Positions 33,636-57,548 of a DNA stretch of 57,861 nt are shown here, piece after piece. The notes beneath the pieces were generated by a model. The model ran no database searches. It was not told the origin of the DNA and saw only the letters and a list, made by a program, of their open reading frames with translations. The stretch lies in the IMG/VR virus record IMGVR_UViG_3300014169_000007, positions 1 through 57,861 of that record; one strand, given 5' to 3'. The translations under genes and the position numbers were made by a program. The stretch is from a virus (taxonomy: Duplodnaviria; Caudoviricetes). Each line of letters opens with the position of its first letter. Positions within the stretch are counted from its first letter, which is position 1.

Positions 33636-33654
33636 GGTCATTCCGCTAAAGTTA
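33636..33654 (+). promoter_or_regulatory. Putative phage late promoter (copy 1)
   Basis: GGTCATTCCGCTAAAGTTA, intergenic, upstream of the head module. Confidence 0.7.
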
Positions 33655-33699
33655 GGAGTCCTACAGGACTTCATGTCATAAAGAAAGTAGGGTAGAATT

Positions 33700-33930
33700 T
33701 TGCTGCCATTTTTGAAACAAAAGCAAGCCAAAGACGCCGGTGTTATAACCCAGTTAAGATCTCCCGATGAAGGACCGGAACAAGACGCGTCGTCCGGCCT
33801 TGAAATGGCTATGCAAGATTTCTCTAGAGCCTCCGATGCTAAAGATTTTAAAGGAATGGCTGCAGCTTTTAAAGCTGCATTTGACATCCTTGAATCAGAA
33901 CCCCATGATGAAATTTCACACGAAGAATAA
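33700..33930 (+). CDS. Hypothetical head-module protein
   Basis: 76 aa, TTG start, first ORF after the late motif. Confidence 0.6.
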   Translation: MLPFLKQKQAKDAGVITQLRSPDEGPEQDASSGLEMAMQDFSRASDAKDFKGMAAAFKAAFDILESEPHDEISHEE

Positions 33931-33943
33931 AGGATAAAATACC

Positions 33944-34870
33944 ATGCCCCTAATCAAACGCACTTCTAAAAAAGCCCTGAGTAAGAACATTGAAACAGAA
34001 ATGCATGCCGGAAAACCACAAAAGCAGGCTCTAGCTATCGCTTTCAATACTCAACGTCAGGCTCGAAAGAAAATGGCCTTTGGCGGTGAATTCATGGGTA
34101 AAAAAGACTCACAACCATCCCAACCATCCCCCCAACCATCCCCCGGACCGTCCGACGACAAGTCTAATACAGAAACTGCAATGGATTCTATTAGGAAAGC
34201 ATTTGGACCTAAAAAAGCCAAAGGCGATATGATGTATGCGGAAGGCGGAGAAATACGAGCTGGCTCAAGACGCCCTAGTGCGGACGATGAAGACGAACGT
34301 GAAATGGCTATGATGGAAGGTGCTTCATCTGAACACGGACCAGAACTAGATGCTCGGGATGAATCCATGTCTGGTATCGACGGCGCTCGAGACGAACGCG
34401 AAATGGATATGATGGCAAGTGGTGGAGAAATCAACTTTAAAGATGAACACATGACCAATATCGATGATGCAGCAGATGAACGAGATGAGCATATGCTCGA
34501 ATCTGCTCCTACTAGCCATGCTCCAGAAAAACGCGCTGGAACTAAAATGGTCACTGAAGATTCTAGAGATGATATGGAACTCTCTATGATGCATCTTGCT
34601 AAAGGCGGTATTGCTGATCGAATCCGAGCAAAACAAAAGATGATGGCCGAAGGCGGGGAAGTTGATCTTCAAGATAATAGCGATGAACATTTAAATGAAG
34701 AAGATCAATTAAGTTATAAAGCTGCACGTAAAAAGACTTATTATGATGATAGTCAAATTTCTCGTCAACCTATGGATTCAAATGAACATGGTGACGAACT
34801 TTCTGATGAGGACTCACACGATATGGTCTCCTCTATCCGAAAGAAGATGAAGTATAAACAACGAAGTTAA
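33944..34870 (+). CDS. Acidic, disordered protein with five AxGG motifs (putative internal head protein)
   Basis: N-terminal MPL.K..SKKA.S.NI.TE..AGKPQKQA.AIA segment; MAFGG, YAEGG, MASGG, LAKGG, MAEGG. Confidence 0.6.
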   Translation: MPLIKRTSKKALSKNIETEMHAGKPQKQALAIAFNTQRQARKKMAFGGEFMGKKDSQPSQPSPQPSPGPSDDKSNTETAMDSIRKAFGPKKAKGDMMYAEGGEIRAGSRRPSADDEDEREMAMMEGASSEHGPELDARDESMSGIDGARDEREMDMMASGGEINFKDEHMTNIDDAADERDEHMLESAPTSHAPEKRAGTKMVTEDSRDDMELSMMHLAKGGIADRIRAKQKMMAEGGEVDLQDNSDEHLNEEDQLSYKAARKKTYYDDSQISRQPMDSNEHGDELSDEDSHDMVSSIRKKMKYKQRS

Positions 34871-34881
34871 TTGAGGGGATT

Positions 34882-35124
34882 ATGAACCCTAAAGAACTCA
34901 AAAAGCTTGCCGATGCCTGCCGAAAAGCTGGTATTAAGCACTTTAAGAACGCCGAGTATGAGTTTACATTAGCTGATGATGCCCCAGTTTCAAACTATAA
35001 GAAACGAAATGCACCGCAGTTAACTGGACCAGTAGTAGATCCTGGTCTCTCCACTCAACAACTGACAGAAGAAGAAATGCTTTTTTGGTCTGTTGGCGGA
35101 GCTGCTGAAAGTACGGAACAATAA
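34882..35124 (+). CDS. Hypothetical protein upstream of the portal
   Basis: GAGGGG SD; 80 aa. Confidence 0.6.
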   Translation: MNPKELKKLADACRKAGIKHFKNAEYEFTLADDAPVSNYKKRNAPQLTGPVVDPGLSTQQLTEEEMLFWSVGGAAESTEQ

Positions 35125-35126
35125 CA

Positions 35127-37019
35127 ATGAAGGTTTCAAAAGTTACTCCTAAGAATACCGTTACGTTTAGTACGAAAGACCCCAATTCACAGCTTAAGGG
35201 CGTTTTTAAATGGTGGACGGCGAAAAATGATAGAGAACTGACTAACCAAGTTCTTTCTACCGCGGCTTATCTTAAAGAGAGTCAACAGTATCTTCAACGA
35301 CAAACAGCTATTTATGCTAGGCTCTATGGAAATATGAGCTTATTCAGTTTTATTGGTTCAAATACCACTAAGATGGATCAACAGACGGGTTTACCAGCTG
35401 ATAGGCCTACTTTTAATTTAGTTCAATCCTGTATTGATACATTAGTTTCCAGACTCAGTCAAAACCGACCGGCTCCTGTATTTTTGACAGATGCCGGTGA
35501 TTATAAAGAACGTAGATTAGCTAAACAATTAAATAATTTTATCTTAGGTGAATTCTATCAAACTAAAGCTTACGATAAAGCTGCCATTGCTTTACGAGAC
35601 GCATGTGTTACCGGAACCGGTATTCTTAAAGTTTATGAAACTGCAGATAATAAAGTAGCCCTCGACAGAGTTTTACGTACCGAATTACTAATAGATTCCA
35701 ATGACGGCATCTATGGTGAACCTAGACAAATCTTTCAAATGAAATTAGTTGATAGAGATGTATTAAAGGACATCACCGGGTCTAAACAGATAGTTGAGGA
35801 TGCCGCAACCGCATATCCTGATAACTCCGCAGAATCATCAAAAACAGTTACCGATCAAGTAATGATTGTTGAATCTTGGCATTTACCTAGCAGCCCAGGC
35901 GCTAAAGATGGACGTCATGTTATAGCTTGTAGTTCTGGCATACTTCTTGATGAAAAGTACACAAAGGATAAATTCCCATTCGTATTTATACAATACTCCC
36001 CACGTTTACTAGGTTTCTGGGGGCAAGGTTTATCTGAGCAATTAATGGGAACACAGATAGAAATCAATTCCTTATTATTCACTATCTCTAGAGCAATTAA
36101 GTTAGTTGGTGTCCCTAGAGTATTCGTCGAAGCAGGCTCTAAAGTTTCTAAAGCAGCTTTTAATAACGACGTCGGCGCTATCATTGAATACCGAGGTATT
36201 AAACCTTCGTATGAAGTAGCACCCGCCGTACCACAGGAGTTATATGCACAATTGCAACGACTCATCGACTACGGATACCAGCAATCTGGCGTGTCTGCAA
36301 TGCAGGCGTCAAGCCAAAAGCCAGCAGGTCTTAACTCCGGGGAAGCCATCCGATCTTACGATGATATCTCGACAGACCGAATGGCTGCGCTCTCAAAACG
36401 ATACGATAACATCTTTGTCGAACTTGCTTACGCGATTACTGACCTTGCTAAAGACATTGCAGAACGAACCGGCAGTTATCAAACAGTTTACCCCAACAAA
36501 GACGGAACCAAAGAAATAGACCTACCAGAGGTTAAGATGTTAGAAGACCCATTTGTTATTCAAGTCTTTAATCAATCTAGTTTACCGAAAGATCCTTCTG
36601 GCAGAATGCAAAAGATAACGGAAATGATCCAAGCTGGTATGATTACTATTAAAGAAGGCCGTAGACTTTTGGATTATCCAGACTTAGATCAAGTAGAAAA
36701 GCTTGCCAATGCATCAGAAGAGCGCATTTATCAGATTTTAGACAAGATCGTTGAAGACGGTGATTATACACCGCCTGATCCTTTCATGGATTTACAACTT
36801 GCAACTGAGTTAGTTGTACAATATTACAACCTATATAGTTCTGCACGCTTAGAAGAAGACAAATGTCAGATGTTAAGAGATTTCTTCTCTCAAGTTCAAA
36901 CGATGACACAAGCTGGCCAACCTGCTCCACAGCCACCCACCGGCGCACCAGCGGCATCACCTCAGACCCTACCTCAGTCACCCCTAGTACCAAATGGTAA
37001 CCCCGGCGGCGCACAATAA
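35127..37019 (+). CDS. Portal protein
   Basis: 630 aa between TerL and scaffold/capsid; FNLVQS.IDTL.SR, FPFV...GQGL.E.L...Q.EIN segments and a P/Q-rich tail typical of podovirus portals. Confidence 0.8.
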   Translation: MKVSKVTPKNTVTFSTKDPNSQLKGVFKWWTAKNDRELTNQVLSTAAYLKESQQYLQRQTAIYARLYGNMSLFSFIGSNTTKMDQQTGLPADRPTFNLVQSCIDTLVSRLSQNRPAPVFLTDAGDYKERRLAKQLNNFILGEFYQTKAYDKAAIALRDACVTGTGILKVYETADNKVALDRVLRTELLIDSNDGIYGEPRQIFQMKLVDRDVLKDITGSKQIVEDAATAYPDNSAESSKTVTDQVMIVESWHLPSSPGAKDGRHVIACSSGILLDEKYTKDKFPFVFIQYSPRLLGFWGQGLSEQLMGTQIEINSLLFTISRAIKLVGVPRVFVEAGSKVSKAAFNNDVGAIIEYRGIKPSYEVAPAVPQELYAQLQRLIDYGYQQSGVSAMQASSQKPAGLNSGEAIRSYDDISTDRMAALSKRYDNIFVELAYAITDLAKDIAERTGSYQTVYPNKDGTKEIDLPEVKMLEDPFVIQVFNQSSLPKDPSGRMQKITEMIQAGMITIKEGRRLLDYPDLDQVEKLANASEERIYQILDKIVEDGDYTPPDPFMDLQLATELVVQYYNLYSSARLEEDKCQMLRDFFSQVQTMTQAGQPAPQPPTGAPAASPQTLPQSPLVPNGNPGGAQ

Positions 37020-37143
37020 GTTTTAGAGCTAGCACAGCTCTTTAATTAAGAAGCAACAACAAAACCGATGTCACAAAAGTAATATGTTTTTGTGACATAT
37101 AAAGCAATGAAATTGTAATCAATTTGATTACTTAGGAGATACC

Positions 37144-38148
37144 ATGAAAGTCGAAACGATCGCAGCCCCTTCTATTACCCAACCAACTGGCGCAAAGTCC
37201 GTAGCTCAGGTAAGTGCTCGAGATAGAGCTATACAGATGCTAACAGCGCAACAGTCACAGCAGGCTCCAGTTCAAAACCCAACAAACGTAGCACCGGAAG
37301 AAATGTCCGCTATTGTGCCTAAACAACAAGATTCCGGTCAATCCGCTAAAGATGAGAGCCAAGTTCCTGTTGCTAACGAAGCACCAAAAGCACCAGAAGA
37401 ACCTATTAGTTCTCAATACGCCGTTTTAGCGCGTAAAGATAAGGCCTTACGTCTTAGGGATCAACAGCTAAAGCAGAGAGAAACTGCTTTGCGTGCCCAA
37501 GAAGAGGCTTTAAAAGCTAAACCTCTCGCCCCCTCTATTGATGAATCCAAATACATATCAAGAGATAATCTTCTAAAGGATCCAATTAGAACTCTTTTAG
37601 ACATGGGCTTAACCTATGATCAATTGACGGAAGCCGCCGTAAACGGTCCAAGTCAAGAAAATATGTCTCTTCAGAATGAATTAAGAGCAATGAGAGAAGA
37701 ACTTAAAGCTCTAAAGGGTGAGACTGAGAATACTAAGAAAAGCTTTGAAGAGAATCAGAACTTACAACGACAACAGGCAGAAAAACAGATTAAGTCTGAT
37801 GTCTCCCGATTAGTTCAATTAGATCCTAGCTTCGAGATGATTAAAGCAACCGGAAGCGTTGGAGATGTAGTTGAATTGATTACGAAAACCTTTGATGAGG
37901 ACGGAATTCTTTTGACCGTTGAAGACGCCGCCGCTCAAGTTGAAGAGTATCTTGCTGAGGAAGCTATTAAACTTGCAAGACTTAACAAAATTCAACAGAA
38001 ATTGCAACCTAAAGTTGCTCCACAGAAGCCAACGAGTCAACCTCAGCAGCAACAAGTTAAAACTTTAACGTCTAATATGACTAATTCGAGACCTTTAAGT
38101 GCTAGGGATCGAGCTATATTAGCCGCTGAAGGAAAATTAAACAAATAA
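37144..38148 (+). CDS. Capsid scaffolding protein
   Basis: Q/E/K/A-rich coiled coil between portal and capsid; AGGAG SD. Confidence 0.7.
   Translation: MKVETIAAPSITQPTGAKSVAQVSARDRAIQMLTAQQSQQAPVQNPTNVAPEEMSAIVPKQQDSGQSAKDESQVPVANEAPKAPEEPISSQYAVLARKDKALRLRDQQLKQRETALRAQEEALKAKPLAPSIDESKYISRDNLLKDPIRTLLDMGLTYDQLTEAAVNGPSQENMSLQNELRAMREELKALKGETENTKKSFEENQNLQRQQAEKQIKSDVSRLVQLDPSFEMIKATGSVGDVVELITKTFDEDGILLTVEDAAAQVEEYLAEEAIKLARLNKIQQKLQPKVAPQKPTSQPQQQQVKTLTSNMTNSRPLSARDRAILAAEGKLNK
37336..37354 (+). promoter_or_regulatory. Putative late promoter (copy 2, inside the scaffold gene)
   Basis: GGTCAATCCGCTAAAGATG, upstream of the capsid gene. Confidence 0.5.
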
Positions 38149-38264
38149 TCGATAGCTTAAACATTACCCTAACATGGTGTTATGGTAGGTTATAGACTAT
38201 CAAATATTGACAAAGGATCATGACGTTCTAACCAACGTTATAACCAAAGTCTAAAGGATGACAC

Positions 38265-39548
38265 ATGAGTGCCGTATACGCAAACAGCGCTAACCAAATC
38301 GCAGCTCTTAAAGAACTGTACACCGATTCTTCAGAATACATGAAGGATCTAGTTTATAAGGAAAACCCTTTCTTGGCTCTTGTGCCCAAGAATGAAAGCC
38401 CAGATGGCTTTGCTGGTAAATATATTCCAGTACCAATCGAATTCGGCGTACCAGCAGGACGATCACACTCGTTCTCTAACGCTCAAAACCAACAGACAGC
38501 AGCTCAATTGGCTTCTTTCTTCGTGTATGTGATTTCAGACTATCAATTAGTCACAATCACAAACCTATTGATGGAACAGACCAAATCAAATGCTGGAGCC
38601 TTCGTCGATGCAGCTAAACTGCAAATGGACGGTGGATTCAGAATGATCACCAACAACATCGCTTTCGAATTGTTCGGTGACGGGTCTGCTACACGTGGTT
38701 TCATTGGATCTACAGTATCGACCTCTGCTCCTACGTACGTTATTACTCTTTCGAATGCTCAACAGATCGTTCAGTTCGAAGTTGGAATGACCTTAGTGAA
38801 CTTTGCAATCAGTGCAGGAATTATCTCCAGCATCAGCAGCAGCACTGCTTCAATCACCGCAGTGGACAGAACAAACGGAATTATCACCGTTCTTGCTTCT
38901 GCTACTGATTCTTCATGGGCTTCTGCAGGAAACGGACTCGGAGTATACGGGGACATCGTTGCAGGACCAGTCAGCACCGGAACGAACCTTGCATTATCAG
39001 GATTGGCCGCATGGCTTCCTACTTCTGCTCCTAGCAGCTCTGATAGCTTCTGGGGTGTGAACCGATCTGCAGACGTAACCCGTCTAGCTGGTATTCGATA
39101 CAATGCTCAATCATTGACCATCGAAGAAGGTATCACCAATGCTCTTGCAGTGTTAAACCGAGAAGGTGGAAAACCCGACCTTTGTATCCTGGACTTCGCT
39201 TCTTTCGCTGCTCTTGTGAACAGCTTAGGGGCTAAAGTTCAATACGTTCAAGTAAAACATGACGAAGTTGAAGTAGCTTTCGAAGGGATCACTTTCCAAT
39301 CTGCTTACGGACGAGTCACGATTCTTGCTGATCGTTCATGTCCTCCTCAGACCGCATACTTACTCACCATGTCTACATTCAAACTCCGCTCTTTAGGCAA
39401 AGTACCACATATTTTGACCTACGGAATGGAAGGGTTGGAAGGACTCAGGGTTGGAAATGCTGACGCTCTCGAGATACGTATTGGATACTACGGAAACCTC
39501 ATCTGCAGTGCTCCGGGCTGGAACGCCGTTGTTCAGTTATCTGCATAA
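38265..39548 (+). CDS. Major capsid protein
   Basis: 427 aa after the scaffold, followed by a terminator; codon usage visibly biased (TTC/ATC/AAC/GCT) as expected for a highly expressed gene. Confidence 0.8.
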   Translation: MSAVYANSANQIAALKELYTDSSEYMKDLVYKENPFLALVPKNESPDGFAGKYIPVPIEFGVPAGRSHSFSNAQNQQTAAQLASFFVYVISDYQLVTITNLLMEQTKSNAGAFVDAAKLQMDGGFRMITNNIAFELFGDGSATRGFIGSTVSTSAPTYVITLSNAQQIVQFEVGMTLVNFAISAGIISSISSSTASITAVDRTNGIITVLASATDSSWASAGNGLGVYGDIVAGPVSTGTNLALSGLAAWLPTSAPSSSDSFWGVNRSADVTRLAGIRYNAQSLTIEEGITNALAVLNREGGKPDLCILDFASFAALVNSLGAKVQYVQVKHDEVEVAFEGITFQSAYGRVTILADRSCPPQTAYLLTMSTFKLRSLGKVPHILTYGMEGLEGLRVGNADALEIRIGYYGNLICSAPGWNAVVQLSA

Positions 39549-39591
39549 TATCCAGACTTTGATTTAACAACATAAAATTATAGTAATTTTA

Positions 39592-39623
39592 GGGGCTAGG
39601 AATGAAAATTTCTAGCCCTTTTT
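39592..39623 (+). terminator. Intrinsic terminator after the capsid gene
   Basis: GGGCTAG-loop-CTAGCCC followed by TTTTT. Confidence 0.75.
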
Positions 39624-39858
39624 ATTGTATTGCATTTCAGGGTAGTTCTGGATAACCACCCTATGTATATCAAAGCTATCGAGTACTTAAAGAAATCAAA
39701 CAAGTAACTAGCAATCAACTAAAAGAATCCACAACTTAACTACAATCTTGTAAAGACTTGTAAACACCACCCAAAACACCACCCAATTATACCCGATTTG
39801 CATCCATTTTACTCAGTTTGTTACCGGTATAGTAACAAAACCCCAAACAAACAGACAA

Positions 39859-39887
39859 TTGACAATAATGGATAATCTTGGTATTTT
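39859..39887 (+). promoter_or_regulatory. Sigma70 promoter opening the accessory island
   Basis: TTGACA-17-TATTTT (TGn-extended); +1 falls on ATG 39894. Confidence 0.65.
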
Positions 39888-39893
39888 ATAACT

Positions 39894-40109
39894 ATGGAGG
39901 ACGGTATGAAATCATACATTATAGCAAGTGGTATAAGCAAAGGCGACGAATCTAGACCAGATTGGGAATGGCAAACTATTGATTTATTAGGTTTTATTGC
40001 TGAAAAACTTAAAGAAGATAGATTAACAGTTAAAAAAGAAGCGCGGTATAGACTTAAGTTTCATCAAATTGCACAAGTAGAATTGAAGCATCAGAAAAAG
40101 GCAGCGTAA
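39894..40109 (+). CDS. Hypothetical protein
   Basis: Start at either 39894 (leaderless) or 39906 (GGAGG SD); both are in frame. Confidence 0.6.
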   Translation: MEDGMKSYIIASGISKGDESRPDWEWQTIDLLGFIAEKLKEDRLTVKKEARYRLKFHQIAQVELKHQKKAA

Positions 40110-40110
40110 T

Positions 40111-40356
40111 ATGATCTTAAATGCCGATGATTATCGAGTTAACGCAAAACCAATAGAAATATTACTACGTGATAAAACTGAACAAGAGCGTTATGAGGCT
40201 ATAGGACCAATTGCCGTAGCATATGGTGTACCAATTATTATTGTATGTTGTTATGTCGGCGAGTTATATGGCTTTAGTCCCCGTCTACTTGACTTTATAG
40301 ATCGTCTAAAGGTATTCTATACGGTGACAGATATAAAAGGAGTTACATATGTATAA
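40111..40356 (+). CDS. Hypothetical protein
   Basis: 81 aa, tightly packed. Confidence 0.55.
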   Translation: MILNADDYRVNAKPIEILLRDKTEQERYEAIGPIAVAYGVPIIIVCCYVGELYGFSPRLLDFIDRLKVFYTVTDIKGVTYV

Positions 40357-40744: not shown

Positions 40745-40798
40745 CTGACAGTAAATGAGGACTTTGGTGTTCTTTAATCAAGCGGACAAAGAATATGA
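40733..40798 (+). repeat. 66-bp direct repeat, copy A (weakened promoter/RBS cassette)
   Basis: 63 of 66 positions identical to 41490..41555. Confidence 0.95.
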
Positions 40799-43412: not shown

Positions 43413-43431
43413 GGTCAATCCGCTAAATATG
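43413..43431 (+). promoter_or_regulatory. Putative late promoter (copy 3)
   Basis: GGTCAATCCGCTAAATATG, where structural genes resume after the accessory island. Confidence 0.7.
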
Positions 43432-47497: not shown

Positions 47498-50400
47498 ATG
47501 TTGAATAAACAAGCCATAGACATAAGCTTTGCTCAAGGTCTTGATACAAAGACTGATCCGTTTAGGGTTCAACCTGGCAAATTCTTGTCATTGCAAAACT
47601 CTGTATTTGACAAAGGAGGTCAGTTAAAGAAACGTAATGGTTTTGGTGCGTTAACGCCCCTACCTACGCAAACACCTTCTTATTTGACGACATTTAATGG
47701 AGATTTAACCGCTTTAGGTACAACTTTAGAATCGTATTCAACTGGAAGTTCTAGTTGGGTTAATAAAGGATCAATCCTACCATGTGACCTAACCACATTA
47801 CCCGCAGTACGAAGTGGTACTTACCAAGGGCAAGCAGATTCGGTAACAGCTACAAACGGCATAGCTTGTGTAGCATATACAGATTATTTACCATCTGGGG
47901 GTTCCGTCACTCCAGCATATAAATATGTAATTTTAGATGCTACAACGGGCCAAAACATTGTAGCCCCGACTTTATTATCCAATGCCGATCCAACGTATGG
48001 AACCCCCCGAGTATTCTTAATGGGTCCCTATTTTATTATACTCTATACAACCCTTGTCGGCGGTGCGCATCACTTATCATACATTGCTATTAGTACACAA
48101 ACCCCCACTTATGTCAGTGCCGTTACAGATATTTCCAATGGTTATTCTCCTTCTACTACGGTTGCTTTTGATGGCATAGTAGCTAACAGCAATCTTTATA
48201 TAGCGTATAATAACCTTTCTGGTGGTCAATCCGTTAAAGTTACATATTTGTCCCAATCTCTAACATTGGGACCGACAGTTACGTTTTCGGGACAGATTGG
48301 GACAATATTTAGTTTAGCAGTAGATGAAACTAATCCAACTAATCCACTCATTTATGTATCGTATTATAACTTAGGAACAACAACAGGCTATACATTTGCA
48401 GTTTATAGCACATTAGTACAAGCCTTGGCACCAACAGCAACAATCACTAGTGGTACTATACTAAACTTAACATCTATAGCACAAGGCGGCGGTGCGAATA
48501 GTATATGTACACTATTTTATGAAGTAGCCAATAATTATTCATATGATAGCTCAATACCAACCCATTATATTGATACTAATACATTAACTATAACAGGGAC
48601 TTTAGGAACTCCAAAAGTATTAAAACGTTCTGTAGGCTTAGCTTCTAAAGCATTTATATATAACTCTGAACCCTATGTTTTATCTATATACGAATCACCA
48701 TATCAACCAACATACTTTCTATTAAATGCAAGCGGTGTAATTATAAGTAAATTAGCTTATTCTAATGGGGGCAATTATTACACCTTAGGATTACCCAACA
48801 CTAGTGTCGATACTAACACAAATGAAATAACAATTTCATATTTATATAAAGATTCAATAACTGCATTAAATACTCAGGGTAATAGCATTCAAAGTGTAAG
48901 TGGTGGCATCTATGCTCAACTAGGGATTAACTTAGTAACATTTAACTTTGCCCCACCAACAGTGGTAACAGCTGAAATAGGTAATAATCTAAACTATACT
49001 GGTGGATACCTCTCCATGTATGATGGTGTTGCCCCTGTCGAGCAAGGCTTCTTCTTATGGCCAGACAGCGTTGAAGCAGCGTGGAGTGCAACTGGGGGGG
49101 CTATGGGTCCCCAACCAGATAATACCACCAATACGAATGCCTATTATTATCAAGTGACATATGAATGGACTGATAATCAAGGTAACCTATTCCGAAGTGC
49201 CCCCTCAATTCCTGTCGGAGTAACAACTACGGGAACCGGTGAAACCGGAACTGGATCTGTGACATTGCAGATCCCTACATTAAGATTAACTTATAAAACC
49301 AATGTTTCTATAGTAATTTACCGTTGGTCGGCTAAATTTCAGAATTATTATCAAACAACTTCTATTACTGCACCTATCTTAAATAATACATCAGTTGATT
49401 CAATAACTTATATAGACACTTTGAATGATTCGTCAATTCAAGGTAATAACTTGATATATACTACAGGCGGAGTGTTAGAAGATGTTGCACCCCCAGCAAC
49501 CGACTTGATTACATTATTTAACAATCGTGTATGGTTATTAGATGCTGAAGATAGAAACTTATTATGGTTCTCTAAACAGGTCATTGAGGCCACGCCAGTA
49601 GAATTCTCAGACCTATTAACGTTGTATGTAGCTCCAACAACAGCATCGGAAGGTTCAACAGGTCCCATTACAGCAATGGCACCCATGGACGATAAGCTTG
49701 TTGTTTTTAAACAGAATGCATTAGGGTATATTAATGGTATAGGACCAGATAATACCGGATCTAATAGTCAATATTCAGATTTTACATTAATCAATTCAGT
49801 TGTTGGTTGTACAAATCAACAATCTATAGTTTTTATGCCACAAGGCCTTATGTTTCAATCAAACAAAGGTATATGGCTAGTTGGACGGGACCTATCAACA
49901 CAATACATAGGGGCTCCAGTTGAAAGCCTAACGACTGGAGCTACCGTATTGTCCGCTGTAAACGTACCAGCAACGAACCAAGTAAGGTTTACTTTAGATA
50001 GTGGCATAACCCTAATATATGATTATTTTTACTCTCAATGGGGTACATTCACTAATCTATATGCTCAATCAAGCACAATCTATCAAGGATTACACACTTA
50101 CGTAACCAGTTTAGGGCAACTCTACCAAGAAACCGATGGTGTGTATCTGGATGGCTCGACACCAGTTACCATGAGTTTTACAACTGGATGGATTACTTTA
50201 GCTGGTGTTCAAGGCTATGAACGATTCTACCAAATGTATTTATTAGGACAATATATCTCTCCTTTTAACCTAAATGTCCAATTAGCGTATAACTATAATC
50301 CCTCACCAACTCAATCAACGATTGTATCACCAAGCCAACAGCCAGTAACGTGGGGTAGTGATCAATTGTGGGGATCTGGATCTACTTGGGGAAGTCAAGG

Positions 50401-50614: not shown

Positions 50615-50668
50615 TAACATAATATGGTATACACTGTTATTAACCATATACCATAATAACACCCAAAC

Positions 50669-50697
50669 TTGACACAAATTCAAAATTGTGGTAATTT
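50669..50697 (+). promoter_or_regulatory. Sigma70 promoter of a small inserted cassette
   Basis: TTGACA-17-TAATTT (TGn-extended). Confidence 0.55.
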
Positions 50698-50706
50698 TAG
50701 GTTATT

Positions 50707-50844
50707 ATGACGGATGTAAATCTAAAATTTCAATTAGCTTTAACTTACCCTCAATGGATTAGGTATCTTGATGATGATGTTCAGGTCGAACGTTTATTAG
50801 ATTATCTATTGGATGTACGTTCAGAAACATACATGCCATGTTAG
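50707..50844 (+). CDS. Small protein (45 aa, absent from the ORF track)
   Basis: MTDVNLKFQLALTYPQWIRYLDDD...; starts about 3 nt after the predicted +1. Confidence 0.5.
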   Translation: MTDVNLKFQLALTYPQWIRYLDDDVQVERLLDYLLDVRSETYMPC

Positions 50845-50854
50845 AGGAGATTAT

Positions 50855-51163
50855 ATGAAATATATAATAATTATTTTATTATTATTAACCTCCTGCGGTC
50901 AATCTTTAAACCTAACGAATTGTACAACTGCGGTAAATTCCTATACTAATGAATTGGATGGATTGCAAATAGGGGTAGCCACTTTAAACGCGGTACAATC
51001 CATTTTAGGACCTTACGGTTATTCACCTCCGTCTGATGCACCCCATTATACTTTTTCAGTAGCAGATAAAAATAATAATATATGTGGAGAATTTCAAGTG
51101 TATATGAACGCACAAGGAACACTAAACTCATTTAATTTCATTCAAACGACAAAATGGGAATAA
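50855..51163 (+). CDS. Lipoprotein
   Basis: GAGGAG SD; MKYIIIILLLLTSC lipobox; G.T...V..ILGP segment reminiscent of BamE/BLIP-like folds. Confidence 0.65.
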   Translation: MKYIIIILLLLTSCGQSLNLTNCTTAVNSYTNELDGLQIGVATLNAVQSILGPYGYSPPSDAPHYTFSVADKNNNICGEFQVYMNAQGTLNSFNFIQTTKWE

Positions 51164-51573
51164 CTATGACAATGACATTTACTAATACCAAGAATGCCCA
51201 GATACTACTACAAAAACTACTTATCGCGCGTGGAATGGACCCAAATTTAACAAATGACCTACCTGTTGTAGGGAGAGTAGTAGTTGAAGACGATATTGTC
51301 ATTGCTGCAGGCTTTATGCGCGATATGGAAGGTCCCTATGCAATGCTCGACTCATACATCACTAATCCAGAAGCTTCACCAATCCAAAGACACAAAGCAT
51401 TAAACTTGATTACAGAATCCCTAATCAAGGTTTCAAAATCCCTTGGTAAGAATAAATTAATCATGTTTAGTCAAGATCGCAATACCCACCAAAGAGCTTT
51501 AATGCACGGATTCACCAACTTCCCAGATATGTTCACAGCAATACTTGATTTAACAAAAACACCCAGTAAGTAG
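51154..51573 (+). CDS. GNAT-like protein (position of T7 gp13-like genes)
   Basis: VIAAGF...AMLDSYITNP pattern; lies between nozzle and ejection genes. Confidence 0.45.
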   Translation: MGITMTMTFTNTKNAQILLQKLLIARGMDPNLTNDLPVVGRVVVEDDIVIAAGFMRDMEGPYAMLDSYITNPEASPIQRHKALNLITESLIKVSKSLGKNKLIMFSQDRNTHQRALMHGFTNFPDMFTAILDLTKTPSK

Positions 51574-51809
51574 ATTTGGGTGTAAATCTTAAGTAATAGT
51601 TTAGAAATATGTCTAAAAAACAAGTTATGCTTTATATTTAGTAACTTTAATAAACCATACGTATCTCATAATATACAAAAGAAGTAACCTGTACAATATG
51701 AGTTACAAATATAGCCTTATAAAGACATAATATAAGAATCATATCGTAAATCGCGATTTGCGATATTCAATATAAATTCCCATTAGGCAGTATTAGCAAT
51801 CTATAGACT

Positions 51810-51910
51810 TAACAACCTGACACTCCTAACAACCTGACACTCCTAACAACCTGACACTCCTAACAACCTGACACCCCGGCAAAGTTGACACCCCGGCAAA
51901 GTTGACTCCC
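51810..51910 (+). repeat. Non-coding 17-bp tandem array (iteron-like)
   Basis: TAACAACCTGACACTCC x3 plus a partial fourth merging into GACACCCCGGCAAAGTT x2; TGAC recurs at 51818, 51835, 51852, 51869, 51886 and 51903. Confidence 0.92.
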
Positions 51911-52075
51911 TGTAGACAGGTTTTTGAGCACAAATCGGGCCAATCCGCGAATTTTGAGGGGTGAAATAGGCCCCTATTTGCGTTTAGATGGTGTATAAGT
52001 CTACAAATTGACAATAATTACATAGATTTACAAGGTCACAGGTGTCAACTCGGCAGGTTGGCGAGATTGGCAGGG

Positions 52076-52094
52076 GGTCATTCCGCTAAGAATA
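52076..52094 (+). promoter_or_regulatory. Putative late promoter (copy 4)
   Basis: GGTCATTCCGCTAAGAATA, upstream of the ejection genes. Confidence 0.7.
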
Positions 52095-52157
52095 GAGACA
52101 CATAACGTGCCTTTAGTCGTTAGTTGATGGTACAAACTACGCATTCTAGGAGATACT

Positions 52158-53267
52158 ATGCCCTTTTTAGCACCTTTAATACCGGCGATTGCTGGTGGGA
52201 TCGCATCTGCCGCAGCCGGTGCCGGTATAAATGCACTTTCAAAAGGGGCACAATCTAACCCCGCTGCTAATCAAGTCAACTTAGATAGCGCCAACTTGGC
52301 AGCTGCGCAGGGGGGGCAAGGGCAATTGGCATCACAATTGCAGGGAGCCGGGGGGGTTGGTAATGAATCCTCAGTATATAATCAACAACAAGCGCTAGCG
52401 AATCAACTCGGTGCTATGGCACAAGGGCAGGGACCAACACCAGCGCTAAATCAACTTAATCAAGCTACAGGCGCCAATGTCAATCAACAAGCGGCATTGA
52501 TGGCTGGACAGCGTGGAGCTGGTGCAAATGCTGGCTTAATGGCGAGACAAGCAGCTCAACAAGGAGCTAACACTCAGCAGCAGTCAGTTGGACAGGCAGC
52601 AACATTGCAGGCTCAACAACAATTAGGGTCTATTAGCGCATTACAGGCTCAACAAGGCAATATGGCAGCGTTGGCAGGGACGCAGGTAGGCCAACAACAG
52701 AATGCGATTAATAGCCAAGCACAGACAGCATTACAACAACAACAGCAACAATTGGCGCAGCAACAAGGAATTAATCAAATACAAGCTGGCCAAGGAGCTC
52801 AACAAGCTACACAGATTGGACAGATTGGCGGCGGTATTGCAAGTGGATTAGGATCCGCCGTTACTGGAGCATTAAGTGCGCCAGCTGCTGCAACCGTAGC
52901 TCCAGCATCTGCAAACTATATGAGTGGAGTTGGTACATCGTATGCTGAAGGTGGTGAGATACCGTCTCAAACAGGTTATGATGCTATAAAGAAAGAGAAT
53001 TACAAAGGTAAGTCTAAACTTGGTCAGTTGATGTACGCGTCAGGTGGCAAGGTCGATAAGATGCCTATTAACATTAAAGATGGCGGTCATGTCCCTGGTA
53101 AAGCTAAGGTTGGGGGGGCTAAAGATAGCTACTCTAACGATACTGTGCCTGCGATCCTATCCCCTGGTGAGATCGTCCTTCCAAGATCAGTTACACAATC
53201 TGCTAACCCAGCAGAAGCGGCTCATCGATTTGTCAAGGCTGTCAAAGCTAAGAAGAAAGGTAAATAG
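52158..53267 (+). CDS. DNA ejection/pilot protein
   Basis: Q/A/G-rich with hydrophobic Gly-rich segments; C-terminal GG.VPG...D...DTVPA.LSPGE.V.P domain; AGGAG SD. Confidence 0.65.
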   Translation: MPFLAPLIPAIAGGIASAAAGAGINALSKGAQSNPAANQVNLDSANLAAAQGGQGQLASQLQGAGGVGNESSVYNQQQALANQLGAMAQGQGPTPALNQLNQATGANVNQQAALMAGQRGAGANAGLMARQAAQQGANTQQQSVGQAATLQAQQQLGSISALQAQQGNMAALAGTQVGQQQNAINSQAQTALQQQQQQLAQQQGINQIQAGQGAQQATQIGQIGGGIASGLGSAVTGALSAPAAATVAPASANYMSGVGTSYAEGGEIPSQTGYDAIKKENYKGKSKLGQLMYASGGKVDKMPINIKDGGHVPGKAKVGGAKDSYSNDTVPAILSPGEIVLPRSVTQSANPAEAAHRFVKAVKAKKKGK

Positions 53268-55058: not shown

Positions 55059-55066
55059 GAAATCAA

Positions 55067-57529
55067 ATGGCTACGAATGACGTACCTGAAGGTTTAGACG
55101 AGTTTATCGCCAGTCCTGCAAGTGGACCCGCAGTCGATAAATCAGCACAATCACAAACTGAACCTGAAGGACTTAATGAATTCATTGCTCCAGAGATGCA
55201 AGAAGAGAAATATGGTTCTTTAGGGGAACAGGCCAAGACATTCGCAGAAAGCGCTGGAAAGGGCCTTGCTGGACCTATAGCACCTATGTTAGAAGAATCC
55301 TTCGGCGTAAACCCAGAAGATATTCGTGGTAGAGCTGAAGCTAATCCTGCAACCGCCTTTGCCGGCGAAGCAGCGGGTTTCGTGGCACCAGCATTGGCTA
55401 CGTTAGGGGAGAGTGCTGCAGCTAAAGCGGGGCTTACTGGTTTAGCAGAAGCAATACCACAACTATCTAAGTTTACACAATTAGGAGCTGTTGAAAAGAT
55501 TGCTGCAAAATTAGCACCTGTTGCAGGAGAAACCTTAGCGTCTAAGATTGGCGCCGCGGCTGCTAAAGGTGCTATCGAGAACATGTTAATTACTGGAAGT
55601 GATGAAGTATCCAGGATGGTATTAAAAGATCCTGAACAATCCGCTCAGAGTGCTATTGCTGATTTAGGCATGTCTGCCGTATTAGGCGGTATGGTTGGCG
55701 GTGGTGCTAAGTCTGTAAGTAGTCTTTGGGATGCAACGCTCGGGAATAAAGCTTCCCAATTAGCTGCAGATTTCAAAGGTCGGATTAATGAGCATATGGC
55801 GAACCCTGACCCTATTACCTCTATGACACATGAGTTAGAAGATCTACACGCCGGTATCACTGGTGTTGCGGATGAAGTCTATGGGCCTAAAGGGTTAAAA
55901 GCTAAAGATATTGAATCAGCTGTTCCTTCTATGCATCAGGGGATTAGTAGTCAAGTTAATGAAATTACTGATAAGGTTGATAACGTATTACAGAAGTTAA
56001 GTAAAGATGAACATGCTGGATTGTTGCAAGAACAAGCAGTTAAGTATAAACAAGCTGTCATGTCTGATGATCCTTCTAAGATCTTTAATGCAACGCAAGA
56101 ATTAAAACAACAACTTCAAGAATGGGGTAGATTTAATAAAGATATCGTACCTCTTAAGGAGCGACCCTTCCGCAATGCTGCTAAAGAATTAGCCCATGAT
56201 CTAAGAACTAGTTTAGAGGATACTAAAGTATGGGGTAAAGCTGCGGAACGTCAAGTCGCCATTAATGGCGCCTTTAAAGACTACTTACCTGCTCTTAAAG
56301 ACTTTGAATCTACCTTTATGACTAAAGTAGGTGATGACAAAGTCATTAACCCCGGTAAAGTGAATACCTATCTAAATCAATTAGGAAACCCAAGTGCTGA
56401 GATTAAACAATCTAAACTACAAAACTTTATAGATGCCTCTCAGAAGTATCATAAGGTCATTTCAGACACACATGCAAACTTAGGATTAGAATCTCCTATA
56501 ATGAAAACTCCTCTAAACGTGACAATGTCAACTTTAGATAAACAAACTATGGGATCCCAACTCGCTGATTGGTTTATACACCACGGACTAACGGATGCTG
56601 GTAGTGCAACCCTAGGAGCTACTATCGGTGGTGGTTTGGCACATTCCGTCGGATTACCGCATTCTATCAGTGCGATTATAGGTGCTAAAGCTATTGGACC
56701 AGTCTTTAAGCCATTAATATCAGCATTAGCTAAGCCTTTGTTTGAAAGTGCTGCAACTGCCCACGGTGTTAAAGCTGCTGTAGAACATACTACTTCGGCT
56801 ATTAAAGGAGCAGAATTAGCATCTAAGGCTGTTAAGAACATATTCAAATTAGGTGTAGCAATACTTCCAGAGCATGCTAAACCATCTGATAAAGAGGTTG
56901 AGAAACTTAACAAACAATTAAGAAGCATTCAAGGTAATCCTGGACCTATCTTCGCACATGATGATCCTCTGCAAAACATAATGCCCGATCACAATAGCGC
57001 TAGAGGTATGATGATTGGCGGAGTGGTAAATTACCTAAATAGTTTAAGGCCTGATTTAGATAAGAAAGCACCATTAGACAGTAAACCTGTGCCCTCTACA
57101 ACACAAAAAGCTACCTATAATGCTGCCTTACAGATTGCCCAACAACCTTTATTGGTACTTGAAAAGGTAAAGAATGGCACTATTACGGCTCAAGATATTC
57201 AGCATATTGGTACCATGTTTCCCCAATTATACAACGGCTTAAAGTCACAAATGATGGAAGAAATCTCTAATGCTTCCCATAAAGATCTAGTTATACCCTA
57301 TAAAACTAGGGTTGGTATCTCCATGTTTATGGCATCTCCACTTGATTCTACTATGACCGCGCCTTCTATCATGGCTGCCCAAGCAAAACCGATGCAACAA
57401 CAGCAACAGATGCAAGCTCAACAGGCACAGTCAAAGGGAGTTAAGTCCGCGCCAGCATTACAGAAAATGCCGAAATCCTATCAAACAAGTGCGCAGTCCT
57501 TAGAAGCTAGGCACCAGAGGGACAAATAA
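55067..57529 (+). CDS. Large DNA ejection/internal virion protein
   Basis: 820 aa, Ala-rich helical with Gly/Ala hydrophobic segments. Confidence 0.6.
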   Translation: MATNDVPEGLDEFIASPASGPAVDKSAQSQTEPEGLNEFIAPEMQEEKYGSLGEQAKTFAESAGKGLAGPIAPMLEESFGVNPEDIRGRAEANPATAFAGEAAGFVAPALATLGESAAAKAGLTGLAEAIPQLSKFTQLGAVEKIAAKLAPVAGETLASKIGAAAAKGAIENMLITGSDEVSRMVLKDPEQSAQSAIADLGMSAVLGGMVGGGAKSVSSLWDATLGNKASQLAADFKGRINEHMANPDPITSMTHELEDLHAGITGVADEVYGPKGLKAKDIESAVPSMHQGISSQVNEITDKVDNVLQKLSKDEHAGLLQEQAVKYKQAVMSDDPSKIFNATQELKQQLQEWGRFNKDIVPLKERPFRNAAKELAHDLRTSLEDTKVWGKAAERQVAINGAFKDYLPALKDFESTFMTKVGDDKVINPGKVNTYLNQLGNPSAEIKQSKLQNFIDASQKYHKVISDTHANLGLESPIMKTPLNVTMSTLDKQTMGSQLADWFIHHGLTDAGSATLGATIGGGLAHSVGLPHSISAIIGAKAIGPVFKPLISALAKPLFESAATAHGVKAAVEHTTSAIKGAELASKAVKNIFKLGVAILPEHAKPSDKEVEKLNKQLRSIQGNPGPIFAHDDPLQNIMPDHNSARGMMIGGVVNYLNSLRPDLDKKAPLDSKPVPSTTQKATYNAALQIAQQPLLVLEKVKNGTITAQDIQHIGTMFPQLYNGLKSQMMEEISNASHKDLVIPYKTRVGISMFMASPLDSTMTAPSIMAAQAKPMQQQQQMQAQQAQSKGVKSAPALQKMPKSYQTSAQSLEARHQRDK

Positions 57530-57548
57530 GGTCATTCCGCTAAGTATG
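57530..57548 (+). promoter_or_regulatory. Putative late promoter (copy 5)
   Basis: GGTCATTCCGCTAAGTATG, upstream of the appendage module. Confidence 0.7.

Follow-up and report, generated by a model that had tools for sequence, protein, structure and literature searches.

A dispersed motif as the likely late promoter of an uncultured tailed phage and its candidate phage-encoded reader

Introduction

The motif GGTCAWTCCGCTAA, repeated through the virion genes of a 57,861-nt stretch of phage DNA (the whole stretch analysed, hereafter the window), is most likely a late promoter. This role we infer from the number of its copies, their bias in strand and position, their concerted replacement in relatives and the RNA contigs that start just downstream. 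Probably, the motif is read by the host RNA polymerase without a phage polymerase and with the help of a phage-encoded factor, for which 30584..31021 is the likeliest gene. Under the proposed scheme, the five exact GGTCAWTCCGCTAA-NNN-T-R copies would act as late promoters of an approximately 58-kb uncultured tailed phage of wetland, peat and soil. Each copy would head one unit of virion genes, namely the portal block, the capsid gene (from within the scaffold gene), the adaptor and tail block, the block encoding proteins of 369, 595 and 820 aa, and the fibre block. The features concerned are as follows.

33636..33654, + strand: putative late promoter copy 1 (motif plus NNN-T-R); exact copy; relatives have motifs of their lineage at the syntenic site, and RNA contigs start just downstream
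37336..37354, + strand: putative late promoter copy 2; exact copy, with the lineage's own motif at the same intragenic position in the 8 relatives examined
43413..43431, + strand: putative late promoter copy 3; exact copy, with RNA contig starts and syntenic post-capsid copies
52076..52094, + strand: putative late promoter copy 4; exact copy, kept in the closest relative though the flanks differ
57530..57548, + strand: putative late promoter copy 5; exact copy, kept in the closest relative with a diverged downstream flank
48224..48242, + strand: variant with one mismatch, within the gene of the 1038-aa tail-hub-like protein; none of the listed RNA contigs starts there
51938..51956, + strand: variant with two mismatches; the GC hairpin and T-rich tail behind it resemble a terminator
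39591..39620, + strand: predicted intrinsic terminator after the capsid gene, with a 13-bp stem and a T tract, closing the transcription unit of copy 2

Motif copies and their placement

Scanning of both strands recovered five exact copies of GGTCAWTCCGCTAA, at 33636, 37336, 43413, 52076 and 57530, together with variants at 48224 (one mismatch) and 51938 (two mismatches). With up to two mismatches allowed, the + strand has seven copies and the - strand has none. Dinucleotide shuffles yielded a mean of 0.45 such copies with a maximum of 3, none of the 100 shuffles reached seven, and base composition predicts only 3e-4 exact copies per strand. The copies reported in the first-pass annotation, all on the + strand, are thus confirmed, and so is its NNN-T-purine sequence after each copy, which is present in seven of seven cases (AGTTA, AGATG, ATATG, AGTTA, TTTTG, GAATA and GTATG). 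Additionally, a weak A-NNN-T pattern occurs at the 3' end of the motif in all seven. Repeat scans run de novo at loose settings were dominated by noise.

Four of the five exact copies occupy intergenic gaps, and the non-coding share of 33000-57861 is only 9.5% (binomial P ~4e-4). The distances from these copies, at 33636, 43413, 52076 and 57530, to the next start codon are 50, 95, 68 and 46 nt. Copy 1 lies 36 nt past the TerL stop and, with ORF 33700 next in line, heads the block of g33700, g33944 and the portal gene. Copy 3 follows the island of 39.6-43.4 kb, with a strong terminator (42978-43005) about 400 nt ahead of it, and precedes an endonuclease VII-like gene and the conserved g43907. 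Copy 4 stands before the block of 369-, 595- and 820-aa virion proteins. Copy 5 directly follows the stop codon that closes the 820-aa gene and precedes ORF 57590; the record ends within this ORF, which probably continues at 1-495 and is then followed by tail-fibre genes. The earlier description of the copies as marking the resumption of virion genes after sigma70-driven islands therefore suits 33636, 43413 and 52076 and fails for 57530, which abuts the stop of a virion gene.

Two copies lie inside open reading frames. The copy at 37336 coincides with residue 65 of the scaffold ORF (37144-38148), in its low-complexity N-terminal region, and the major capsid gene follows downstream. The variant at 48224 falls in ORF 47498-50614 and is probably not an active promoter, and the function of the variant at 51938 is doubtful; no support was obtained for either variant as a promoter. 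Inspection by eye for a sigma70 -10 sequence, at the distance that the contig starts would predict, found one at copy 3 alone (TAAGCT), and such an element was therefore rejected as a general feature of the motif copies.

Conservation of the motif sites in relatives

In relatives whose portals are 52-88% identical, the corresponding positions are occupied by different motifs particular to those relatives, and these motifs change in concert at sites 3.7 kb apart. The paired sites lie directly after TerL and inside the N-terminus of the scaffold gene, where L105 carries GGACAARTAGACAA, L106 and L107 carry GATCAGAACAGCAA, L114 carries GGACWATCTAGCYA, L139 carries AACCACTCATTYCACC, L147 carries CCGCCATAACCGATAC and L149 carries AGTGCCATTCCAGATAC; L150, L155 and L188 each have a motif pair of their own. 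A further syntenic copy follows the capsid gene in L147, L171, L167, L139 and G001. The exact GGTCAWTCCGCTAA is confined to the closest clade (L102, L103, L104 and L108, with portal identity of at least 91%), and the closest relative keeps all five motif positions. Twelve lineages besides that of the window have two to four motif copies each. When up to one mismatch to the core of each lineage is allowed, the 13 lineages together have 39 copies, every one of them on the gene strand, and the opposite strand has none. Most of these copies consist of a contiguous lineage-specific block of 14-24 nt, 3-8 A/T-rich nt and then G-A-R. Positional conservation in relatives, which had been proposed as a check, is thus observed, in the form of lineage-specific motifs at syntenic sites.

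The two-site comparison covered 47 testable relatives and gave no clear motif pair in 34 of them; the random-segment control itself held further true copies, so that only 7 of the 47 loci exceeded all 40 controls. Neither L186 nor the alphaproteobacterial prophage L189 yielded a pair.

Strict one-strandedness would also be expected of another kind of DNA signal, such as a site for specific nicks, a recombination boundary between modules or a packaging-related site, with the position near genes being secondary. Strand-specific nick motifs exist in some phages, and the closest relative ceases to be homologous about 30 nt past copy 3 and again after copy 5. However, such a signal would leave unexplained the RNA contigs of several studies that start just downstream, the constant spacing of 46-95 nt to the next start codon and the conservation of an intragenic site just ahead of the capsid gene, and we regard it as very improbable.

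RNA contigs at the motif copies

Metatranscriptome contigs were compared with the four copies at 33636, 37336, 43413 and 52076, that is, with all except 57530. At copy 3 (motif end 43426), three studies have contigs that start 19-20 nt past the motif, at 43445 (X12), 43446 (X14) and 43446 (X15), and an X10 contig starts at 43467. At copy 1, with the motif end at 33649, the starts are 33666 (X14), 33671 (X10) and 33694 (X15), so that two studies place them 17-22 nt past the motif. At copy 2, an X14 contig starts at 37368 (motif end 37349), and the contigs of X10 (37288-39443) and X15 (36858-37598), two of the three RNA contigs there, cross the site. The RNA contigs listed at copy 4 start only at 52275 and 52333. 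No loose contig ends are listed at the starts 43445/43446, 33666/33671 and 37368. Contig starts downstream of the motifs are a weak hint of a promoter. RNA contigs show neither true transcript starts nor strand; DNA runs contain 95-98% of the sampled words of the stretch. The transcript start predicted earlier, 5 nt past the motif, is not established by these contigs, which begin 17-22 nt past it.

Near the terminator 39591..39620, RNA contigs end at 39443, 39528, 39556 and 39583. A 350-nt skip from 38789 to 39140 in X10 and X12 contigs was considered as splicing and rejected, with 21 nt on one side and loose ends adjacent; it is read as a variant capsid segment from a related strain. RNA cover is almost absent from the bins 33001-33667 (the end of TerL) and 39671-43005 (the island), an observation given no weight as evidence.

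The distance between motif and contig starts would also suit a role at the RNA level: long transcripts might be cut at the motif, which would then be a site of processing or stabilisation, and abundant RNAs would begin there without a promoter. Hairpins behind two copies agree with such a site: those after 33636 (7 bp) and 43413 (5 bp) are 5'-proximal and clear, with a best z of -2.07. The first-pass annotation had placed a short hairpin after every intergenic copy, and this holds for these two of the four and not for 52076 (z +0.27) or 57530 (z -0.12), where none was found. The hairpins are, however, inconstant, and the one behind 33636 is deleted in the closest relative. The strong terminator ahead of copy 3 also speaks against the cutting of a long transcript there, and a search of Rfam matched no family. 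Moreover, complete and concerted change of the motif between close lineages suits a phage-encoded reader of DNA better than a host RNase. Processing of RNA is accordingly judged improbable as the role of the motif.

Searches for a phage polymerase or sigma factor

The 66 proteins of the window gave no match to PF00940 or any other RNA polymerase family, and none to a sigma family, in PHROGs and Pfam. No RNA polymerase appeared in a six-frame scan of the window (control genomes silent) or in five whole relatives, and no DxDGD motif is present. A six-frame search with Sigma70_r2 (PF04542) returned no match at E up to 1; its control was positive in 11 of 14 genomes, and a very divergent region 2 could escape it. 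The initial statement that no phage RNA polymerase is recognisable withstood these polymerase searches, in the window and in the five relatives.

A cryptic phage polymerase beyond the reach of sequence profiles, for example the 595-, 820- or 1038-aa protein, would account for several traits of the motif. The layout, with a contiguous specificity block, a short A/T-rich stretch and a purine start, is like that of the promoters of single-subunit polymerases; the motifs have no evident -35/-10 pair; and the three large conserved proteins are without an assigned fold. PDB sequence searches with these proteins gave nothing usable. Besides the missing PF00940, DxDGD and PHROG matches, it counts against this reading that the large proteins belong to the virion module and are themselves encoded downstream of the motifs. 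They would be made late, and a late-made enzyme could not start late transcription. Furthermore, the nearest named ESM-Atlas clusters to the conserved 1038-aa protein are tail-hub and muzzle proteins, and by this comparison it resembles a tail hub. Conservation of the 595- and 820-aa proteins is only 28-33%, versus 54-59% for the portal. The same system is also found in temperate relatives of about 37 kb; in G001, which has an integrase, 37.4 kb of sequence and four motif copies, all non-structural proteins are of 230 aa or less. A cryptic polymerase is therefore considered rather unlikely.

Among 50,697 GenBank phage records, no similar DNA, no similar capsid or 1038-aa protein and no relative was found. 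The capsid protein has a weak match to the SU10 capsid family (phiEco32-like).

The candidate reader and its cassette

The preferred reading, in which host polymerase is directed to the late promoters by a phage-encoded factor, points to a small conserved cassette upstream of TerL.

30095..30123, + strand: sigma70-like promoter (TTGACA, 17 nt, TAGTCT), preceding the factor cassette
30295..30603, + strand: co-conserved 102-aa protein with no PDB relative, always just upstream of the candidate factor
30584..31021, + strand: candidate specificity factor of 145 aa, with a conserved N-terminal FKxLQxxWYxKLxxSGFxDIE and a C-terminal HTH of the sigma-region-4/LuxR type
31005..31421, + strand: co-conserved 138-aa GNAT-like protein (weak acetyltransferase match, E 0.023)

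The candidate factor lies downstream of sigma70-like promoters at 30095 and 30248, and the 11-mer TTGACAATAAT of the former is found again at 39859 and 52008. Its profile matches DesR (E 3e-4) and sigma-H (0.03). In the fold comparison (VIA), it matches sigma-H with Z 7.4, rated middling, alongside many rows of sigma region 4, and the HTH of a small terminase with Z 6.7; with fold matches of this kind, 30584..31021 could also bind DNA in some other role, such as that of a terminase small subunit. Sigma70_r4 is present in 23-73% of the members of the nearest ESM clusters. Foldseek with the model of the candidate gave nothing at E 1e-3 or better, and the protein has no Pfam or NCBIfam match even at E 10, with the curated cut-offs of Sigma70_r4, Sigma70_r4_2 and GerE not reached. 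Among 147 members of its family, Pfam gives weak matches to GerE in two and to HTH_38 in seven and finds a sigma family in none, and no Mor/C match was obtained for the family. A PDB search with the family of 30295..30603 gave nothing usable, and profile comparison of the two small proteins revealed no relation between them.

The gene is present in 32 of the 34 loci that extend at least 3 kb upstream of TerL, being missing from L144 and L146, and in all five whole relatives. Prophages carry it as well, on an alphaproteobacterial contig of 1.03 Mb and on a contig of 360 kb from Acidobacteriaceae. Hosts appear to be Gram-negative or of other phyla; the MAG labels 'Saccharibacteria' and 'Cellvibrionaceae', attached to phage-only contigs of 33-55 kb, were left out of this assignment. 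At 50% identity, the family divides into at least 3,747 clusters, all without annotation. Between the window and L105, which carries a different motif, the candidate is 43% identical, compared with 87% for the portal, 95% for the capsid and 82% for TerL; between the window and L103, which shares the motif, it is 93% identical. In L149 and G001, a motif copy is found directly behind the conserved part of the factor and just ahead of the 31005..31421 homologue.

The first-pass annotation had named 30584..31021, and by profile and fold the gene does encode a conserved, putative HTH DNA-binding protein. It sits where late activators usually lie and is the best candidate for the reader of the motif. 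That host polymerase works with a phage-encoded factor agrees with the lack of a detectable phage polymerase and with the conservation of the HTH gene; that 30584..31021 in particular does the reading is a link we infer from sequence. The asymmetric site of 14-24 nt is long for one small HTH protein.

In the mechanism envisaged, the phage would have no RNA polymerase of its own, and the host enzyme would be guided to the motifs by a specificity factor expressed beforehand from an operon of the sigma70 type (promoters 30095 and 30248). The likeliest reader would be the 145-aa HTH protein, which may act jointly with 30295..30603, its constant neighbour. The factor may dock at the 5' part of the motif, which is lineage-specific, and the constant 3' part (A-NNN-T, then G/A-rich) may serve as a weak -10 and discriminator for the host holoenzyme, or as the start site itself. 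More tentatively, and with a good deal of doubt, the 30584..31021 family might represent specificity factors of a new, minimal class, distinct both from classical sigmas and from classical upstream activators. Under the direction of such a factor, host core or holoenzyme would serve promoters of the T7 style, each a single contiguous element of 14-24 bp. Factor and promoters would evolve together at such a pace that orthogonality is already reached between phages whose portals are 87% identical.

Significance

The motif offers a testable transcription map for a very abundant group of uncultured phages, whose tail-hub protein has at least 2,517 relatives. It would also show how such phages time capsid production without a polymerase of their own, with a conserved promoter buried in the scaffold gene boosting the capsid gene alone. 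Moreover, it suggests a likely function for the large unannotated family of 30584..31021. If the pairs of factor and promoter are as specific as the turnover of their sequences suggests, they may become useful orthogonal expression parts, and they may help in annotating the late regions of metagenomic phages. Should the minimal-factor reading prove true, nature would hold a library of thousands of orthogonal pairs for the bacterial polymerases of several phyla.

Comparison with known systems

Among the closest parallels are phiEco32 and phage 7-11, described in passages of PMC8948821 as podoviruses without their own polymerase, in which 6-8 promoters before middle and late genes are served by a phage specificity protein and the host core. 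According to the same passages, the phiEco32 gp36 promoter is a single element (tAATGTAtA) with no -35 and a start 6-8 bp downstream, and phage 7-11 (gp47) uses a different consensus at similar genome positions. Both gp36 and gp47 are given there as recognisable sigma70-family proteins, gp36 with region 2 and without region 4 (PMC8948821). The window is alike in its dispersed, putative single-element promoters before virion genes and in that no own polymerase was found. It differs in that no region 2 was found here and the candidate combines a region-4-like HTH with a novel N-terminal domain. The element is also longer than that of phiEco32 (14-24 nt), and no homology to phiEco32 genes was detected.

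Mu C, as covered in part of PMC4461284, is an activator of about 140 aa, made earlier, which turns on Plys, PI, PP and Pmom through a common site with the host holoenzyme; it acts as a dimer, and its site lies upstream of or over the -35. A small, earlier-made candidate protein and several late promoters with one site are shared with the window, whereas the window site is asymmetric and abuts the start region, and no Mor/C Pfam match exists.

The Ltr late activators of Gram-positive phages (RinA, ArpU, LtrA with Sigma70_r4, LtrB and LtrC) are, in the sections of PMC3753634 drawn on here, small proteins encoded just upstream of packaging and morphogenesis genes, needed for the late operon and acting on one promoter upstream of terS. 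The sigma-region-4-like LtrA resembles the window candidate in fold. In contrast, the window has at least five dispersed putative promoters with none before the terminase, its candidate has no Pfam membership, and its hosts are apparently Gram-negative or of other phyla.

Late promoters of P1 combine a -10 with a conserved element close upstream that replaces the -35; this element is short and symmetric, unlike the asymmetric 14-24 nt of the window. P1 depends for many dispersed late promoters on one phage-encoded, RNA-polymerase-associated activator, Lpa, as part of PMC8198154 reports.

No T4-type late genes were recognised in the window. The T4 late promoter is a single 8-bp element without a -35, served by host core and a small phage factor, gp55, a region-2-like sigma that needs the sliding clamp; the window motif differs from it in sequence and is longer. 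The T4 element is given in a portion of PMC2988020 as TATAAATA, with gp55, gp33 and gp45.

A contiguous lineage-specific block repeated before gene blocks is a likeness to T7-type promoters, and a T7-like RNA polymerase was not found here. In T7-like promoters, the block lies directly upstream of a purine start, recurs before gene blocks and co-evolves with its reader.

As in the activator systems of Mu C, P1 Lpa and Ltr, the window has a small, earlier-made DNA-binding candidate near the start of the late region and several promoters with one site. Single-element late promoters set by a phage-encoded factor are already known from phiEco32 gp36, phage 7-11, Mu C, P1 Lpa and Ltr, and the first-pass proposal of a new late-promoter class was therefore overstated (PMC8948821, PMC4461284, PMC8198154, PMC3753634). 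The motif system of the window is best seen as a switch of a familiar type whose form is new and widespread.

The probable late-promoter motif

The 14-bp motif very probably forms the core of five late promoters. A scan of the window gave five exact copies, at 33636, 37336, 43413, 52076 and 57530 (copies 1 to 5), and two variants, at 48224 (1 mismatch) and 51938 (2 mismatches), every one of them on the + strand. The repetition claimed in the first-pass annotation holds up: 3e-4 exact copies are expected per strand, shuffled sequence contains 0.45 copies on average, and none of 100 shuffles reaches the observed seven. The annotation was equally right that NNN-T-purine directly follows the motif, as it does in all seven copies. 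Four of the five exact copies are intergenic, against a non-coding share of 9.5% in 33000-57861 (P about 4e-4), with 46-95 nt separating each of the four from the start codon that follows.

A short hairpin had also been claimed after each intergenic copy. Clear 5'-proximal stems follow 33636 and 43413, and no such stem follows 52076 or 57530; a 35-nt deletion in the closest relative removes the stem after 33636. After variant 51938 come a GC hairpin and a T-rich tail, a terminator-like arrangement. Variant 48224 lies inside the gene of the 1038-aa protein, and none of the listed RNA contigs starts there.

Gene map of the window (PHROGs and Pfam searches of the 66 window proteins)
+ strand, replication block: UvsX-like recombinase, SbcCD, primase-helicase, family A DNA polymerase
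26152-28029, + strand: primase-helicase
27986-30094, + strand: family A DNA polymerase
32148-33599: terminase large subunit (TerL)
35127-37019: portal
37144-38148: scaffold-like ORF
38265-39548: major capsid protein (weak SU10_MCP match)
beyond the capsid gene: further conserved virion genes
minus-strand block: helicase, trypsin-like protease, endolysin, BBP2 porin

The remaining exact copy, 37336, falls within the scaffold ORF, as does the corresponding copy in each of the 8 relatives examined; there it occupies the poorly conserved N-terminal portion, some 50 nt ahead of a conserved LSPQFAALA-type segment. Because the motif is intragenic and no in-frame start follows it closely in the window scaffold ORF, this copy most likely serves the capsid gene. 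Such a conserved promoter inside the scaffold gene is a notable feature of the system.

Sigma70-like promoters are also present. The 11-mer TTGACAATAAT occurs three times, each time as the -35 part of such a promoter: at 30095 before the factor cassette, at 39859 before the post-capsid island, and at 52008, 68 nt before copy 4. At 41502, 42878 and 50669 there are more TTGACA-17-TAnnnT promoters, these carrying TG extensions.

Motif turnover among relatives

A portal search of IMG/VR yielded 73 loci (52-99% identity), and the gene order TerL, g33944 (the gene starting at 33944), portal, scaffold, capsid is constant throughout. The exact window motif is confined to the closest clade (portal identity at least 91%), with two copies in L102, three in L103, one in L104 and three in L108; the remaining 69 loci have at most one 2-mismatch match each. 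The T form of the motif occurs in 95 stretches of the whole viral collection, nearly all of them single chance matches in unrelated contigs. A 60,169-bp relative carries three T-form and two A-form copies at the same five positions as the window.

The 300-450 nt after TerL were set against the stretch that runs from the end of portal into the scaffold gene. Several lineages have, instead of the window motif, their own near-identical word at both sites.

Two-site motifs of relative loci
L105: GGACAA(A/G)TAGACAAG
L106 = L107: AAGATCAGAACAGCAA
L114: AGGGAC(T/A)ATCTAGC
L139: AACCACTCATT(C/T)CACC
L147: CCGCCATAACCGATACTAGT
L149: AGTGCCATTCCAGATACTATTGTA
L150: AAAGTG(T/G)CATTTC(G/C)GAC
L155: AAACTGCAT(T/C)T(C/T)CTGACG
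L188: AAAAACTACTCATT

L105 is close to the window phage (portal 87%, capsid 95% identical), yet its two copies depart from the window motif in identical fashion, in position and in base, which amounts to concerted change at two sites 3.7 kb apart. By eye, a motif pair is visible in 13 of 47 testable sources (the window and 46 relatives), with no pair above noise in the other 34. With random segments as control, 7 of 47 sources exceed all 40 controls, partly because the control segments hold further true copies. A rescan of the 13 lineages with their own core (at most 1 mismatch) found 39 copies, every one of them on the gene strand. Third and fourth copies follow the capsid gene in L139, L147, L167, L171 and the relative genome G001, and in L149 and G001 a copy precedes the GNAT-like gene. 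Downstream of every core stand 3-8 mostly A/T bases, then a T and a purine, in most cases with G-A-R after them.

At copy 3 (43413-43460) and copy 5 (57530-57570), L108 and L081 match the window perfectly across the motif and roughly the next 25-30 nt; past this point, homology with the closest relative is lost completely (copy 3) or strongly (copy 5). The promoters lie at module junctions and may act as recombination linkers.

Candidate reader of the motif

The first-pass annotation had recognised no phage RNA polymerase in the window, and the searches agree. None of the 66 proteins has an RNA polymerase match in PHROGs or Pfam, the DxDGD signature was not found, and PF00940 has no match in five whole relatives or in a six-frame search of the window, the control genomes being equally without match. 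Sigma70_r2 was also without match in a six-frame search whose control was positive in 11 of 14 genomes. G001 (37.4 kb, temperate, with an integrase) carries four copies of TTGTCTCAATTACACA and has no non-structural protein above 230 aa. What the window has in common with the 37-39 kb relatives is the virion module and three small genes before TerL, at 30295 (102 aa), 30584 (145 aa) and 31005 (138 aa).

Among the larger proteins, that of 1038 aa is conserved at about 52%, equal to portal, and its relatives number at least 2,517; the named ESM-Atlas clusters nearest to it ('phage stabilisation protein', crAss muzzle) point to a tail hub, as a lead only. The 595-aa and 820-aa proteins are weakly conserved (28-33%), with no fold assigned.

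The 145-aa protein (30584..31021) had been named as the candidate factor, and its C-terminal HTH, its wide occurrence and its position are consistent with the choice. The HTH follows an invariant-rich N-terminal motif, FKxLQxxWYxKLxxSGFxDIE. The gene is found in 5 of 5 whole relatives and in 32 of 34 loci reaching at least 3 kb upstream of TerL. The exceptions are the near-identical L144 and L146, where the 30295 and 31005 homologues are kept and 268 nt with stops in all frames (5179-5447) replace the HTH gene; in L146 the two-site comparison gave no clear motif pair, and the L144 locus does not include the scaffold region that this comparison uses. In the window the gene stands behind sigma70-like promoters (TTGACA-17-TAGTCT at 30095, another at 30248), where a pre-late regulator would be encoded. 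The protein is 93% identical to its counterpart in L103, which has the same motif, and 43% identical to that of L105, which has a different one; the neighbouring proteins of L105 are 69-95% identical.

Run against the PDB, a profile of 33 homologues matched response regulators of LuxR type (DesR, E 3e-4) as well as sigma-H (0.03). Residues 61-145 of an AlphaFold model (pLDDT 82.5) align with region 4 of many sigma factors at a middling best Z of 7.4, and Sigma70_r4(_2) occurs in 23-73% of members of the nearest ESM clusters. The model aligns likewise with KorA and a small-terminase HTH, so that the protein could instead be a terminase small subunit or another DNA binder. Foldseek gave nothing significant for the model, and Pfam and NCBIfam gave no match for the protein; Pfam similarity to HTH_38 or GerE is confined to a few of 147 family members. 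The family has at least 3,747 representatives at E <=1e-3 in the 50% library, of which 0 are named. The case for this protein as motif reader is circumstantial.

Two MAG contigs, one alphaproteobacterial (1.03 Mb) and one of Acidobacteriaceae (360 kb), carry prophages in which the gene also occurs, together with the same small-gene cassette and virion module. Given these prophages in bacteria of two phyla and the integrase of G001, the group includes temperate members with a wide host range; the window phage has a full replication module.

RNA contigs and the start site

Four metatranscriptome runs from four studies (X10, X12, X14, X15), placed on 33001-53000, contain 36-56% of the sampled words of 33501-43500. 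After copy 3 (motif end 43426), contigs start at 43445 (X12), 43446 (X14), 43446 (X15) and 43467 (X10), and after copy 1 (motif end 33649) at 33666 (X14), 33671 (X10) and 33694 (X15); no loose contig ends are listed at these points. At copy 2, an X14 contig starts at 37368, and contigs of X10 (37288-39443) and X15 (36858-37598) span the motif, which is expected if there is read-through from the portal unit and lends no support to a promoter there. Contigs also end at 39443-39583, just before a terminator with a 13-bp stem (39591-39620), and at 44725-44878. The coincidence of contig ends across several studies is a weak hint; metatranscriptome contigs reveal neither true transcript ends nor strand.

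Two geometries fit. The start may be the purine 5 nt after the motif, as the first-pass annotation had it; the motif would then span about -18 to -5, a layout like that of single-subunit polymerase promoters. Alternatively, the last motif A with NNN-T may form a weak -10 whose A stands at -11 and whose T stands at -7, with the start about 11 nt after the motif and the following G/A-rich bases as discriminator; the lineage-specific part would then cover about -24 to -13, a position in which a factor could take over the -35 contact. The late promoters of P1 have this second geometry. Contig starts 17-22 nt after the motif fall 12-17 nt past the first predicted start and 6-11 nt past the second, and no sigma70 -10 is conserved at a spacing that would make them true starts.

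The best-supported mechanism is that host polymerase with a phage factor, putatively the product of 30584..31021, would read the motif at the late promoters. The first-pass annotation had proposed this mechanism; we infer the link to this factor and the position of the start.

In the RNA data, X10 and X12 contigs skip 350 nt within the capsid gene (38789-39140); the sequence on one side of the skip is only 21 nt long, and there are loose ends at 38769 and 39168. Capsid matches span about 2 kb in L103, L106 and L108, so insertions do occur in this gene; the skip most likely reflects a co-occurring strain with a different middle segment.

Other features of the genome

The window is an entire IMG/VR virus record (57,861 bp), 100% complete by CheckV. 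Circular permutation is probable, since the last ORF runs off the end and the first is open at the start. No tRNAs or Rfam families were found in the window, and GenBank phages hold no relative by DNA, capsid or 1038-aa protein. The sequence is present in DNA runs of wetland, soil, peat and pond metagenomes.

The minus-strand porin (9740-11020, 426 aa; Pfam BBP2, E 5e-35) is an OmpL-like beta-barrel; it shares its block with the trypsin-like protease and endolysin and is possibly a moron or a lysis/entry accessory. An Rrf2-family regulator (15628-16074, E 1e-15) comes first in the + strand early region and adjoins the divergent intergenic region 14662-15175. Adjacent proteins at 5459-6835 (458 aa) and 6854-8224 (456 aa) match one stretch of relative G005 and are probably paralogous fibre or receptor-binding proteins. 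The 580-nt non-coding stretch 51574-52157 has an AT-rich part and then two abutting 17-nt tandem arrays, which are iteron-like and may be a replication origin or regulator array.

Tandem arrays
51810-51874: TAACAACCTGACACTCC x3.8, 100% matches
51869-51910: TGACACCCCGGCAAAGT x2.5

Comparison with known systems

A literature search on the phage group or motif type found no description beyond the systems compared here, and the phage collection searched holds no cultured member of the family. Of the systems described, phiEco32 and 7-11 are closest: six to eight middle/late promoters depend on a specificity subunit that the phage encodes. In phiEco32 each is a single element, tAATGTAtA, and transcription starts 6-8 bp downstream of it; 7-11 has a different consensus at similar positions (PMC8948821). 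Sigma region 2, which defines that system, was not found in the window phage. Functionally similar are Mu C, a small activator of four late promoters (PMC4461284), P1 Lpa (PMC8198154) and, in Gram-positive phages, the Ltr activators, which include a family similar to sigma region 4 (PMC3753634). The motif is not the new late-promoter class that had been suggested but belongs to a switch of known kind, notable here for how long the element is, how rapidly it turns over between close lineages and how large the unannotated candidate-factor family is.
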